DNA of 64,000 nt, taken from Bacteroidota bacterium. GTDB taxonomy: Bacteria > Bacteroidota > Ignavibacteria > UBA10030. Each line of letters starts with the position of its first letter. The stretch's first letter is position 1. The notes below the pieces were generated by a model. That model was not told the origin of the DNA. It made no database searches and saw nothing but the letters and a program-made list of their open reading frames with translations. Positions 46,344 through 50,960 of this stretch are shown here, in pieces. Position numbers and translations under genes: made by a program. Where the stretch lies: contig JBGFRR010000151.1 in NCBI GenBank assembly GCA_041695045.1, positions 7,245 to 71,244 on the forward strand, written 5' to 3'.

Positions 46344-47846
46344 ATGAAGCCTCGTTCAAACCGATTGCACGAGCGTTTTCTGCGGCACATCTGGTCGCAG
46401 CAGTACCTGCATCACACCGCGCTCAAGACCACAGACGGTCGTCCGGTGCGTGTGCTCGAGACGGGGACGCTCAACCTCGGCAGCGGGCCGGATTTCCTCA
46501 ACGCAAAAGTCAAGATCGACGGCATCACCTTCGTGGGCGATGTTGAAATTCATCGTGACGCGGCCGAGTGGATCCAGCACCGCCATCAAACCGATCCGGC
46601 CTACAACAAAGTGATACTCCACGTCGTGTTGGAAGGAGACCCCACGCGCTCTCCCACCACAGCACAGAGCGGGCGGTCGATTCCCGTCCTCGTGCTCAAC
46701 GCCTTCCTCTCCGAATCCATCCGCTCGATCTGGAACAAGACAATCCTCGATGAACGAGCGCGTCGGGCGGAACAGATCAAGTGTTTCGGACGGAACGACG
46801 GCGTGGAACCGGAGCTTCTTCGCAAATGGATCGATCACCTCGCGCTGGAACGGTTGGAGCTAAAGTTGCGACGGTTTGAGGAGCGACTCAAGCAGCTCGC
46901 GCAGGAACGCATTCTCTCCACACGAGAACCGTTCCGGCGGTACGGCGTGCGGTTCGAAGGAAAGCCGGAGGATATTCCCCCCGTGCTGAAGGAGCTAACG
47001 CAGAAAGACCTTGCCGACAAGTTGCCGTGGGAACAGATGCTGTACGAAGGCATCATGGAAGCGCTCGGCTACAGTAAGAACCAGGATGCGTTCTGTCGTG
47101 TGGCGGAGAATGCAACGCTCGACCGCATCAGGGAAGTTGAAGCGGAGAAGAACCCGACGATGGTCGAAGCGCTGCTGTTCGGCGTGGCGGGGCTGCTTCC
47201 GAAGATCCGCTCTCTGCGGCATAAAGACTCGCGTGCGTATGCGCGCACGTTGATTCGGACGTGGAATGAGATTCGCACGCGATATCGCGCGGAAGTGCTC
47301 CATGCTGGCGACTGGCATTTCTTCCCGACGCGACCGGTGAATATGCCCACGATACGGCTGGCCGCAGCCGCAGGCATCGTACAGAACATTCTCAACGATG
47401 ACTTCTTCCGCACAACCATTCGCGTCTTCAAGTCCTCCTCCGACGCGGCACGGATGCGCACGGAGCTTCATGCCCTCTTCGCGCTCGACCGCCATCCGTT
47501 CTGGTCCGTGCACTACCATTTCGACGAGCCGACGTCGCGTCCGATACGCCCGCTCGGGTCGACGCGCATCGATGAAATTGTCGTCAATGTGCTGATTCCG
47601 ATTGGCTTGCTCTACGCGAGGGTATTTAAGGACAAGGCGGTGCGGGATGGTGTGCTTCGACTCTACGGGTGGTATGCTGCGGGAAGCGACAACAGCATCA
47701 CACGGCTGATGGAGAAACAGTTGGTGCGGGGACGGATAAAGTTGAGCTCGATGAGCGCGCAGCAAGGCGTGATCCAACTTTACAAGTTCTATTGCACCGA
47801 GGAGCGTTGTGGTGAATGCGAGGTGGGAAAAGTTGTGTTTGGATGA
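46344..47846 (+). CDS. DUF2851 family protein
   Basis: ERFLRHIWSQQYL....LKTTDGRPVRVLETG.LN.GSGPDF..A.V.IDG....GDVEIH...S.W..H.H is typical of DUF2851. Confidence 0.75.
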   Translation: MKPRSNRLHERFLRHIWSQQYLHHTALKTTDGRPVRVLETGTLNLGSGPDFLNAKVKIDGITFVGDVEIHRDAAEWIQHRHQTDPAYNKVILHVVLEGDPTRSPTTAQSGRSIPVLVLNAFLSESIRSIWNKTILDERARRAEQIKCFGRNDGVEPELLRKWIDHLALERLELKLRRFEERLKQLAQERILSTREPFRRYGVRFEGKPEDIPPVLKELTQKDLADKLPWEQMLYEGIMEALGYSKNQDAFCRVAENATLDRIREVEAEKNPTMVEALLFGVAGLLPKIRSLRHKDSRAYARTLIRTWNEIRTRYRAEVLHAGDWHFFPTRPVNMPTIRLAAAAGIVQNILNDDFFRTTIRVFKSSSDAARMRTELHALFALDRHPFWSVHYHFDEPTSRPIRPLGSTRIDEIVVNVLIPIGLLYARVFKDKAVRDGVLRLYGWYAAGSDNSITRLMEKQLVRGRIKLSSMSAQQGVIQLYKFYCTEERCGECEVGKVVFG

Positions 47847-47855
47847 TGCGGCGGG

Positions 47856-48404
47856 TTACTTCCAGACTTCGCTTACCGGAAAGCGCAGTCCTTCCAGAAT
47901 CTTTGAGCGGACTTCCTCATCGCCCGCGAATGTGCCGAACAATTCAAACCCCGTCCGCGTCAACGTGTAGACTTCCACCACGCGCTTGTCCGGATCGGCC
48001 AGCCAGTATTCCTGCACGCCTTCCTGCGCGTAGCGTCGGAACTTGAAGCCGCGGTCGCGGTCTTCCGTCTTGGGCGAAAGCACCTCCACAATCAAGTCCG
48101 GCGCGCCGTTCACGCGTTGCTTCTCGATAATCGATAGCCGTTTCTTCGACACAAAGAGGAGGTCGGGTTGAACGACGGTCTCTTCGTCAAAGTACACATC
48201 GACTGGCGCCCCCCATGCCTTTCCCAGATCGTTGGTAACGATGTGCGTCGAGAGCAATCGTGAAAGATTCATGACGATGGTTTGATGTTCAAGAGACGGC
48301 GCGGGTGTCACGACGAGTTCTCCCTCGAAGATTTCGTAGCGGTTTCGGTCGTCGGGCGTCGACAAGAGATCCTGGTGAGAATATTTGACGGCAATTATGC
48401 TCAT
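47856..48404 (-). CDS. Uma2 family (DUF820) PD-(D/E)xK endonuclease, copy A
   Basis: RYEIFEGELVVTPAP...PDLLFV...NGAPDLIVEVLSP.T...D...K...Y...GV.EYW is present. The start is taken at MSIIAVKY. Confidence 0.75.
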   Translation of the reverse strand: MSIIAVKYSHQDLLSTPDDRNRYEIFEGELVVTPAPSLEHQTIVMNLSRLLSTHIVTNDLGKAWGAPVDVYFDEETVVQPDLLFVSKKRLSIIEKQRVNGAPDLIVEVLSPKTEDRDRGFKFRRYAQEGVQEYWLADPDKRVVEVYTLTRTGFELFGTFAGDEEVRSKILEGLRFPVSEVWK

Positions 48405-48421
48405 GGCAGCACCTGTCCGAT

Positions 48422-48970
48422 TCATCTCCAAACGTCGCTTACCGGAAAGCGCAATCCTTCCAGAATCTTTGAGCGGACTTCCTCATCGTCCGCGAATGTG
48501 CCGAACGATTCAAACCCCGTCCGCGTCAACGTGTAGACTTCCACCACGCGCTTGTCCGGATCGGCCAGCCAGTATTCCTGCACGCCTTCCTGCGCGTAGC
48601 GTCGGAACTTGAAGCCGCGGTCGCGGTCTTCCGTCTTGGGCGAAAGCACCTCCACAATCAAGTCTGGCGCGCCGTTCACTTTTTGCTTGTCGACAATCGT
48701 GAGCCGGTCCCTGGCGACAAAGAGCAGATCGGGCTCTACAACGGTCTCCTCATCAAAGTACACATCGCAGGGAGCGAGAAAAACTTTGCCCCGATCTCCT
48801 TTCCTGACATACTGCGAAATGATGAAATGGAGATTGCCCAGAGCTGTTTGGTGTACAACAGACGGCGCGGGTGTCACGACGAGTTCTCCCTCGAAAATTT
48901 CGTAGCGGTTCCGGTCGTCGGGCGTCGATAAGAGATCCTGGTAAGTATATTTAACGGCAATTGTGCTCAT
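48422..48970 (-). CDS. Uma2 family (DUF820) endonuclease, copy B
   Basis: Same architecture as copy A, 17-nt spacer to copy A, start at MSTIAVKY. Confidence 0.75.
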   Translation of the reverse strand: MSTIAVKYTYQDLLSTPDDRNRYEIFEGELVVTPAPSVVHQTALGNLHFIISQYVRKGDRGKVFLAPCDVYFDEETVVEPDLLFVARDRLTIVDKQKVNGAPDLIVEVLSPKTEDRDRGFKFRRYAQEGVQEYWLADPDKRVVEVYTLTRTGFESFGTFADDEEVRSKILEGLRFPVSDVWR

Positions 48971-48987
48971 GGCAGTACCTGTCCGAT

Positions 48988-49536
48988 TCATCTCCAAACG
49001 TCGCTTACCGGAAAGCGCAATCCTTCCAGAATCTTTGAGCGGACTTCCCCATCGTCCGCGAATGTGCCGAACAATTCAAACCCCGTCCGCGTCAACGTGT
49101 AGACTTCCACCACGCGCTTGTCCGGATCGGCCAGCCAGTATTCCTGCACGCCTTCCTGCGCGTAGCGTCGGAACTTGAAGCCGCGGTCGCGGTCTTCCGT
49201 CTTGGGCGAAAGCACCTCCACAATCAAGTCCGGCGCGCCGTTCACGCGTTGCTTCTCGATAATCGATAGCCGTTTCTTCGACACAAAGAGGAGGTCCGGC
49301 TCAACAACCGTTTCTTCGTCAAAGTACACATCAAACGGAGCAGAAAGGAGTTTCCCTAACTGATGTTGCTTGACATGACTCGCTAGAATGAGCAAGAGGT
49401 TTACAACAGCTGTTTGATGAGCTTCATTCGGTGAAGGCGTCACGATAAGTTCTGCCTCAAAGATCTCGTAACGGTTCCGGTCGTCTGGAGTCGTCAGCAA
49501 ATCCGGATAGATGTATTTCACAGATACTGTTGTCAT
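48988..49536 (-). CDS. Uma2 family (DUF820) endonuclease, copy C
   Basis: Same architecture, start at MTTVSVKY. The longer track ORF (to 49743) overlaps the upstream gene and is unlikely to be real. Confidence 0.75.
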   Translation of the reverse strand: MTTVSVKYIYPDLLTTPDDRNRYEIFEAELIVTPSPNEAHQTAVVNLLLILASHVKQHQLGKLLSAPFDVYFDEETVVEPDLLFVSKKRLSIIEKQRVNGAPDLIVEVLSPKTEDRDRGFKFRRYAQEGVQEYWLADPDKRVVEVYTLTRTGFELFGTFADDGEVRSKILEGLRFPVSDVWR

Positions 49537-49592
49537 CGCTTTCTCTGGTAAAACATAGCGTTTTAGGCTCTGTTTGTCAAGCGCACACCGTG

Positions 49593-50960
49593 TTAGGTTT
49601 TCTGTTGCTTCTTCTTTGCCGCCGGGAAGAGGATGTTGTTGAGGATGAGCCGATAACCGGGGGAGTTCTTGTGAAGCGTTAGGTCGGTGGGAGGCTCGCC
49701 CACAAGATGCGTATAGTCCTCCGGGTCGTGGCCGCCGTACCACGTAAACGTTCCGCGGCCGTAATTGCCATGAAGATATTTGACTTCCTCCGTTCCCTCA
49801 CGCTGAGCGAGAGTCACCACCGTCGGTTTGATGAGGCTTTTGCGGAACGCCGTCGTCTGACCCATGAAGCCCTTGACGATGTTCACGTGGTTCTGCGTGA
49901 GCATGGTCGGTACGGGGTCATACTTTGCAGAGAATTCGAACAGCGTGAAGTAATCCGTGTTCGGGTCGCGCATCGGCGGCGGGTCGCTCGGCGGGATGTC
50001 GATATCAGAGTACTCGTAGCGCAGGGGGTTTCGTTCGAGCGTGAAGTTCTCGAACGCGAGCGTTTTCGAAAAGTCGAGCCTCTGCTGCGCGTTGAGATCC
50101 GGAGGGTCGCCGTCAAACATGACGTCGCAGATGTCCACACCGTCTGCCGCCAGCGCAATGTCGTACGAGTCCGTGGCCGAACACATTGCGAACATGAAAC
50201 CGCCGTTGCCGATGAAGTCTTTGATCCCTCGTGCGACGGCCTTCTTCGCATCGGACACTTTTCTGAACCCCAACCGCCTCGCCTCCGCTTCGTACATCAA
50301 CTGCTGCTCGATGTACCACGGCGCATGGCGATAGTTCGAGTAGAACTTCCCGTACTGGCCGGTGAAATCTTCATGGTGAAGATGCAGCCAATCGAACTCC
50401 GAGAGCTTGCCCCACAGCACCTCTTCATCCCACACTTTCGTGTATGGAACTTCGGCGTACTCGAGCGCGAGCGTTACCGCATCATCCCACGGCTTGAAGG
50501 TGGGCGGAACGTACACGGCGATCTTTGGCGCTTTCTCCAGGCGGACGACGTCCATGTTGTTTGCTTCGCTTTGGATCTCCGCATAGATTACCGCTGCCTC
50601 GGAACCGCTCAGCGGCTCAAATAACACACCGCGGATGCGGCACTCCCGCGCGACCACGTCGCTGTAGTCCGTCATGAATGAGCCGCCACGATAATTGAGC
50701 AGCCAGTCAACTTCCCCGTTCCGCTCCAACACCCAGAACGTCACGCCGTACGCTTTGAGGTGGTCGGTCTGCCGCAGGTCCATGGGAATGAGAAGCTTCG
50801 ACTGAGCGGCAACGAAGCAAGTAGTAAGTACTAAGTAGGAAGTAGTAAGTAGTAAGAAAAAAGTAGGAAAAGTGGCGGAAGAGAGAATGCCCACCATGCG
50901 CTTTATGGGTCCTCGTTGCTTGCGACGTACGACTGGATACTTTCTACTCAGATACTTCAT
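49593..50960 (-). CDS. secreted class I glutamine-amidotransferase-like (DJ-1/ThuA-like) protein, function unknown
   Basis: N-terminal TM/signal segment. GGFMFAMCSATDSYD resembles a nucleophile elbow. Homologues of this conserved FCB protein are often mislabelled asparagine synthetase B. Confidence 0.5.
   Translation of the reverse strand: MKYLSRKYPVVRRKQRGPIKRMVGILSSATFPTFFLLLTTSYLVLTTCFVAAQSKLLIPMDLRQTDHLKAYGVTFWVLERNGEVDWLLNYRGGSFMTDYSDVVARECRIRGVLFEPLSGSEAAVIYAEIQSEANNMDVVRLEKAPKIAVYVPPTFKPWDDAVTLALEYAEVPYTKVWDEEVLWGKLSEFDWLHLHHEDFTGQYGKFYSNYRHAPWYIEQQLMYEAEARRLGFRKVSDAKKAVARGIKDFIGNGGFMFAMCSATDSYDIALAADGVDICDVMFDGDPPDLNAQQRLDFSKTLAFENFTLERNPLRYEYSDIDIPPSDPPPMRDPNTDYFTLFEFSAKYDPVPTMLTQNHVNIVKGFMGQTTAFRKSLIKPTVVTLAQREGTEEVKYLHGNYGRGTFTWYGGHDPEDYTHLVGEPPTDLTLHKNSPGYRLILNNILFPAAKKKQQKT

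Follow-up and report, generated by a model that had tools for sequence, protein, structure and literature searches.

An array of three Uma2 (DUF820) genes, carried on contig JBGFRR010000151.1 of a Bacteroidota-like metagenome-assembled genome (MAG) from groundwater, raises the question of how adjacent paralogues can be nearly identical over one half of their length and deeply diverged over a segment of the other. The stretch analysed here, referred to as the window, is 64 kb in length, and the three open reading frames (ORFs) lie head to tail on its minus strand, as do all the features described below unless stated otherwise, in the transcription order copy C (48988-49536), copy B (48422-48970) and copy A (47856-48404). 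Each copy comprises 182 aa when counted from an ATG that was preferred over an upstream TTG because the N-termini of the family align at M-x-x-x-x-VKY. Sequence comparison of the units demonstrated that the 17-nt spacers between C and B (48971-48987) and between B and A (48405-48421) differ at one of 17 positions, and that the array has a period of exactly 566 nt with no indels between units. An initial annotation of the window had described three co-directional 182-aa paralogues with this period and these spacers, which was borne out by both ORF and unit comparison, and the peptides that it quoted were found to be correct against the translations. No further Uma2 copy was detected in the window by tblastn with the three proteins as queries, and a protein-identity look-up returned no record for copy A. 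The GC content of the array (0.52-0.59) is similar to that of its flanks, on which basis a foreign origin by composition was rejected. The evidence presented below indicates that the array is probably an operon of three old Uma2 paralogues which has been patched repeatedly by gene conversion.

Conserved and diverged tracts of the array

The three copies were compared in unit coordinates, in which position 1 is the first base of the spacer and each unit comprises 566 nt. Overall nucleotide identities were 84.5% (A-B), 80.2% (A-C) and 80.9% (B-C), with the differences being clustered. Copies A and B were approximately 94% identical over unit positions 1-128, which include the spacer, had diverged over 129-323 and matched fully at 324-480, whilst for copies A and C a diverged stretch at 1-257 gave way to identity at 258-498. 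The local relationships thus number at least three: A and B stand against C at the 5' end, A and C stand against B within unit positions 258-323, and the 3' half is alike in all copies. The longest identical runs measured 157, 241 and 157 nt, lengths that were reached in none of 100,000 permutations in which the same number of mismatches was randomly placed (permutation maxima of 67-87 nt). The plot of identity along the gene that had been proposed in the annotation was therefore clustered and not uniform, in keeping with the conserved-variable-conserved mosaic that it had described.

The homogenised 3' block (unit positions 324-566) occupies 48988-49230 in copy C, 48422-48664 in copy B, where it was delimited by unit comparison and synonymous divergence (dS), and 47856-48098 in copy A. 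Within its 243 nt, copy C has two differences relative to B and seven relative to A, and the final 13 nt of the unit are common to B and C only, being unlike those of A. Homogenisation spans the gene junctions, as a stretch made up of the 3' half of one gene, the adjoining spacer and codons 1-37 of the gene that follows is present in two copies with 96% identity. The 5' tract of copy A (48294-48421; spacer and codons 1-37) is approximately 94% identical to 48860-48987 of copy B, and not to C, whilst in copy A unit positions 258-323 (48099-48164) form a tract that is identical to 49231-49296 of copy C and has 16 nt unlike B. The near-identical C-terminus had been annotated as approximately 95 aa holding the PD-(D/E)xK core; it is indeed homogenised, but comprises residues 100-182 (83 aa), and whilst the active-site residues E107 and K121 lie inside the homogenised block, D81 and H40 are situated upstream of it.

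The variable segment (codons 37-66) is located at 49339-49428 in copy C, 48773-48862 in copy B and 48207-48296 in copy A, and corresponds to helix alpha1, a loop and strand beta1. The description of this segment as 'almost completely different' was too strong, as pairs of copies share 37-40% identity, including H40, Q41, T42, N46, L47, G61, K62 and A66 along with a hydrophobic stripe at residues 50, 51, 54 and 55. The copy C segment has 90% protein identity to an orthologue, P0005, whereas the best database matches to the segments of B and A were only 57% and 53% identical, respectively; a second homologue search with copy B as the query yielded no closer counterpart of the B-type helix.

The window was assembled from short reads of a groundwater metagenome, and with identical repeats of 241 nt in such an assembly, single-copy strain variants might have been stitched into a false tandem array. 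Contigs of four independent runs were hence compared over 47400-50000, and were found to cover both outer junctions as well as junctions of one Uma2 gene with the next, in which a 3' end is joined to a 5' start by the 17-nt spacer. The junction of copy A with the downstream DUF2851 gene was present in records 6 of run X2 (47743-47893) and 14 of run X3 (47585-47991), the A/B junction in record 15 of X3 (47962-48557), the B/C junction in records 3 of X1 (48949-49391) and 10 of X2 (48867-49209), and the junction of copy C with the upstream region in records 12 of X2 (49398-49743) and 17 of X4 (49325-49593). One run, X2, holds all three variable segments, and neither collapse nor chimerism would create spacers. 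A chimera of strain variants was rejected given the presence of Uma2-to-Uma2 junctions in independent runs, and it is most improbable that the array is an assembly artefact.

Age of the segments and exchange between lineages

Nonsynonymous divergence (dN) and dS were calculated for separate parts of the gene. For codons 106-182, dN was 0.011-0.023 and dS 0-0.06 in all pairs, whilst for codons 37-66 dN was 0.59-0.75 in all pairs and dS was 1.2, 1.7 or not computable due to saturation. In codons 1-36, comparisons of A or B with C gave a dN of 0.14-0.18 and a dS of 2.6 or saturated, against a dS of only 0.18 between A and B in the 5' tract. For codons 37-66, and likewise for codons 1-36 when A and B were compared with C, the dN/dS ratio was approximately 0.45 or lower; over the whole gene it was 0.1-0.25. 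Because its dN of 0.59-0.75 is accompanied by a dS ranging from 1.2 to saturation, the variable segment represents old divergence, and it bears no sign of positive selection; neither a dN/dS above 1 nor divergence beyond the family norm, as expected of a positively selected hypervariable region, was observed. Recent diversification under positive selection was rejected on the same values. The related proposal of a recent triplication, after which residues 37-66 diverged rapidly under positive selection, would fit the near-identical 3' halves and the single copy that relatives have at this site, yet synonymous sites have reached or nearly reached saturation both in codons 37-66 and, where A and B are compared with C, in codons 1-36, and the dN/dS ratios in these codons are low. 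In addition, the copy C helix type predates the array, because its 90%-identical counterpart resides in another organism. Such a recent origin of the divergence is accordingly very unlikely.

The family norm was established from 180 Uma2 members aligned to one profile. Family pairs with flanking blocks of 70-90% identity had a mean helix-segment identity of 42-52% (5-95% range of 27-81%), a range that includes the values of the array, whereas the C-terminal segment of the array, at 95-97% identity, exceeds the 95th percentile of the family (72-86%). The helix segment is the least conserved part of the subfamily as a whole, with a majority frequency of 0.50 in columns 37-66; columns 139-182 vary to the same degree (0.51) in the subfamily, yet hardly differ between the copies of the array. 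The anomaly is the homogenised 3' half, and not the variability of the helix segment. Purifying selection is acting on the segment within one helix type, as copy C and P0005 differ in codons 37-66 by a dN of 0.045 and a dS of 0.62, with three conservative changes at residues 50, 54 and 63. The 'protected hypervariable segment' of the initial annotation was consequently not upheld, given the ancient divergence of the segment, its identity within the family norm and the variability of the helix across the subfamily. Since the segment diverged long ago and is so poorly conserved in the subfamily, the sparing of the helix is what would be expected if conversion simply requires homology, and a protected hypervariable module is not needed to explain the pattern.

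The annotation had also attributed the patchwork to gene conversion, and here the data agree: besides the local relationships described above and the fall of dS from saturated to 0-0.06, trees of the two gene halves conflict. In the C-half tree, A, B and C form a clade (support of 99/97), whilst in the N-half tree the copies fall in an unresolved comb with genes of other organisms. Three conversion tracts account for the pattern: the first has made codons 103-182 alike in A, B and C, another has carried the spacer and codons 1-37 between A and B, and the last has carried codons 81-102 between A and C. Such tracts probably start and stop in blocks held alike by purifying selection, as conversion requires homology, and would bypass codons 37-66 (helix alpha1 and strand beta1) because this segment diverged long ago.

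Relatives were found to carry a single Uma2 gene at the syntenic site in six loci (L081, L082, L163, L164, L165 and L168), which represent five related contig sequences, L163 and L164 encoding the same protein and having the same identity profile. The gene is bordered in L081 and L163 by the convergent DUF2851 gene on one side and, on the other, by a homologue of the gene for a 455-aa protein that flanks the array upstream; the flanks are only partly visible on the shorter contigs. The three-copy expansion is lineage-specific, but not unique. In L167, a second Uma2 gene begins 44 nt after the first, giving at least two copies, and the spacer and first 36 codons of this second gene are identical to those of a companion contig, L166, whilst the helix segment differs. 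The organism of L167 and L166 thus possesses an array whose mosaic is of this same type. The two contigs, which originate from one ENA sample, share a start point at a repeat boundary that lies 25 nt ahead of the ATG (L167 574-714 and L166 1-170), and this shared boundary suggests that the array broke the assembly.

Comparison with the single-copy relatives provided evidence of exchange beyond the array. The 5' half of copy C is of the resident, orthologous type, and its N-half is approximately 90% nucleotide-identical to the single-copy gene of L082, with 86-96% identity in a block that begins about 45 nt before the ATG and ends near codon 75 (window 49537-49600; L082 655-925). Between these two genes, dS was 0.04 for codons 1-36, 0.38 when taken over codons 1-85, and approximately 2.0 for codons 86-182. 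The gene for the 455-aa protein (49593-50960), which is syntenic in relatives and served as the yardstick of background divergence, had a dS of 1.49, and the lowest value among 440 valid resamples of 85 codons (500 drawn) was 0.63. The low dS of this block suggests either that the lineages exchanged it recently or that its nucleotide sequence is under constraint. A further instance involves the single-copy genes of two closely related strains, L168 and L163. Identity here is 93-100% in the flanks and at either end of the gene, yet falls to 56-73% in codons ~35-124, such that a central block of 270 nt (L168 241-510) represents a block replacement. A pairwise homoplasy index (PHI) test on ten genes of the clade gave a value that was reached by none of 2000 permutations. 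Recombination at the locus hence extends to exchange between strains, making the Uma2 genes here mosaics of exchangeable blocks.

Pervasive mosaicism within and between genomes, along with the variable copy number at this site among relatives, would also be compatible with Uma2 genes being selfish, recombinogenic nucleases whose own cleavage stimulates conversion, duplication and exchange, the array having no host function. Such behaviour was proposed for the family by Feder and Bujnicki in 2005 (PMC551604). However, the syntenic site is stable across lineages with a flanking dS of approximately 1.5, all copies are intact with their active-site residues kept, the genes are under purifying selection overall (dN/dS of 0.1-0.25) and no mobile-element genes are adjacent. 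We therefore regard a purely selfish array as doubtful.

Several points weigh against an operon of old paralogues patched by conversion, or limit what may be concluded from it. The order of the array rests on a short-read assembly across 241-nt repeats, for which the contigs of other runs confirm the junction types and not the whole order, and dS values derived from 30-36 codons are noisy. For each tract the donor and recipient are indistinguishable, and sequence may have been donated by Uma2 copies at other sites in the genome. The duplication may have taken place soon after the split from the single-copy relatives. Furthermore, we infer both transcription as one operon and nuclease activity, and homology-limited conversion predicts the same pattern as would selection against homogenising the helix.

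Predicted nuclease activity and the variable helix

All three copies matched the Pfam family PF05685 (Uma2) with E-values of 2e-33 to 5e-36 and scores of 115.6-124.3 bits, well above the gathering cut-off of 27 bits, and covered positions 3-171 of the 172-position profile. An NCBIfam scan gave no match for the Uma2 copies, the 455-aa neighbour or DUF2851. The active site predicted for Uma2 proteins is a PD-EXX-K variant together with a histidine (Feder and Bujnicki 2005; PMC551604). This variant is present in the array, with D81 in 'PDLLF' and E107 in 'EVLS', which lacks a lysine two residues on; the active-site lysine has instead moved to the following helix (K121, within helix 120-128). H40 is positioned at the start of helix 38-57, that is, of the variable segment. 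These four residues are invariant in a 40-sequence alignment and are kept in A, B and C. Because the active site of the family is kept, each copy is most likely an active nuclease, predicted to be metal-dependent.

A single-chain AlphaFold2 model, built on the 40-sequence alignment, had a predicted local distance difference test (pLDDT) score of 93.4, and placed residues 38-57 in one long helix followed by a strand at 61-65. Four Uma2 structures have been solved, namely 6okh (Leptospira), 9y1l (Leptospirillum), 1wdj (Thermus TT1808) and 3ot2 (Anabaena), the depositors' titles of which denote uncharacterised or putative proteins. Foldseek comparison of the model gave template modelling (TM) scores of 0.92 to 6okh, 0.84 to 1wdj and 0.78 to 3ot2, consistent with a shared restriction-endonuclease-like fold, and sequence E-values were 2e-40 to 9y1l and 3e-37 to 6okh. 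Residues 40, 41, 46, 47, 50, 51, 54 and 55 of the helix are conserved or conservatively hydrophobic, whilst the positions between them vary, a periodicity which suggests that helix 38-57 may be amphipathic with a variable exposed face.

As the annotation had advised, related loci were searched for similar arrays. A total of 162 loci were fetched from genome and metagenome collections, the metagenome matches listed being at most 48% identical and used for array statistics only. Co-directional tandem arrays were present in 16 of the 162 loci, and comparison of third-codon-position identity along the profile revealed the same patchwork in seven of these (L021, L051, L071, L073, L088, L129 and L148). 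In all seven, third-position identity reached its minimum at positions 37-66 and was high at 1-36, 121-156 or both, so that the mosaic recurs with the helix as its least homogenised part. For instance, the four-copy array of Cohnella cellulosilytica (L071 5379-7760) has ends that are 90-100% identical, with positions 52-66 at 8-58% in several pairs.

This recurrence bears on the possibility that helix alpha1 and strand beta1 form a selected specificity cassette, kept different for target recognition or partner binding, with the operon constituting a nuclease repertoire that possibly serves in defence. The N-terminus of the helix bears the active-site histidine, eight arrays from unrelated phyla spare the same segment, blocks have been replaced between close strains, and within the copy C helix type the three changes relative to P0005 avoid the positions predicted to be exposed. 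All three copies also match the four PDC-S03 models of PADLOC (best E-values of 1.7e-37 to 1.7e-39). However, PDC-S03 is only a single-gene phage defence candidate in PADLOC-DB, and the genes neighbouring the array (TauE, DUF1634, dcd, pyrF, DUF2851, the 455-aa protein, a TPR protein and dxr) include no defence genes, being housekeeping in character (pyrF, dcd, dxr and DUF2851), such that the locus is not part of a recognisable defence island. Moreover, divergence of the segment does not exceed the family norm, dN/dS is below 1 between helix types, the block replaced between L168 and L163 includes the catalytic core as well as the helix, and no substrate has been reported for any Uma2 protein. 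A selected cassette is thus possible but not favoured. The broader notion of helix alpha1 and strand beta1 as an ancient, exchangeable specificity module that is moved between paralogues and strains, with arrays acting as nuclease repertoires, possibly in defence, is somewhat more tentative still. The copies may nonetheless differ in specificity, and specificity modules, hetero-oligomers or defence, as raised in the annotation, are plausible. A type II toxin-antitoxin system was not indicated, in that the array holds only Uma2 genes with no adjacent co-directional small partner gene; Makarova et al. noted that Uma2 is rarely linked to antitoxins (PMC2701414).

Arrays of this family are not new. 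The family and its active site were delineated by Feder and Bujnicki (2005), who also described how erratically it proliferates and noted tandem duplications such as four consecutive genes in Crocosphaera. Uma2/DUF820 is a very large family, making up approximately 2% of the genes of Gloeobacter (PMC551604), and Makarova, Wolf and Koonin (2009) described the family as occurring mostly in 'cassettes of paralogous genes' (PMC2701414). The cassettes of Uma2/COG4636/DUF820/TT1808 genes share with the present array the Pfam family, the fold, the PD-EXX-K site with histidine and the co-directional tandem arrangement. They were reported from cyanobacteria or Thermus, in contrast to the groundwater MAG studied here, and these two papers describe neither a segment-wise conversion mosaic nor block replacement between strains. 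In a survey of the PD-(D/E)XK superfamily, Uma2 is entered only as a predicted endonuclease, and the Uma2 papers cited report no activity for any family member. Literature searches found no functional study of the Uma2 family, of the PDB codes of its structures or of PDC-S03.

Two other systems offer partial parallels. In HsdS, the specificity subunit of Type I restriction, conserved regions flank variable target-recognition domains, which recombination shuffles. The likeness resides in conserved blocks that act as crossover sites around an old, diverged block, which is exchanged between copies or strains; HsdS differs, however, in its unrelated fold and proven DNA-recognition modules, whereas the present array has no methyltransferase partner and a role of the Uma2 helix is at most predicted. 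Rpn (YhgA-like) proteins, another PD-(D/E)XK family, occur in tandem arrays alongside Uma2 in Thermosynechococcus (PMC9403480), but belong to another Pfam family with another architecture, and no sequence relation to the present array has been shown.

As Uma2 arrays were already known and the pattern recurs in others, the locus as a single case adds little. It does illustrate, with clear statistics, how such arrays evolve, in that conversion has overwritten all but one old, folded helix segment beginning at the active-site histidine, with the gene being patched between strains too, and it singles out residues 37-66 as the segment for a helix swap. If true, the module reading would give a first experimental handle on a family that accounts for up to 2% of genes in certain cyanobacteria.

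Neighbouring genes and expression signals

A sigma-70-like promoter (TTGACA-17-TATGTT; 49552-49580, 10 of 12 matches) was identified 15 nt ahead of the copy C start codon. It was the one promoter-like site in 47500-50000, none being present before B or A, and the promoter block is kept in the related locus L082. No terminator-like site was seen on the array strand. The three genes are thus likely co-transcribed as one operon from the promoter preceding copy C. At the other end of the array, the stop codon of copy A lies 9 nt from that of the convergent, plus-strand DUF2851 gene (PF11013; 46149-47846), which is syntenic in relatives. A hydrophobic ORF of 143-148 aa, with no Pfam match, is situated between the Uma2 and DUF2851 genes of L081 (2195-2641) and L166 (558-989), and is absent from the window.

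The upstream 455-aa protein had no Pfam, NCBIfam or PADLOC match. It has a hydrophobic N-terminus, and is 81-89% identical in relatives, where its gene is syntenic. The start of this gene overlaps the end of the gene for a 722-aa TPR protein by 4 nt, and its 5' part (50819-50866) contains a 7-nt tandem repeat, AAGTAGT, in approximately 5-7 copies.

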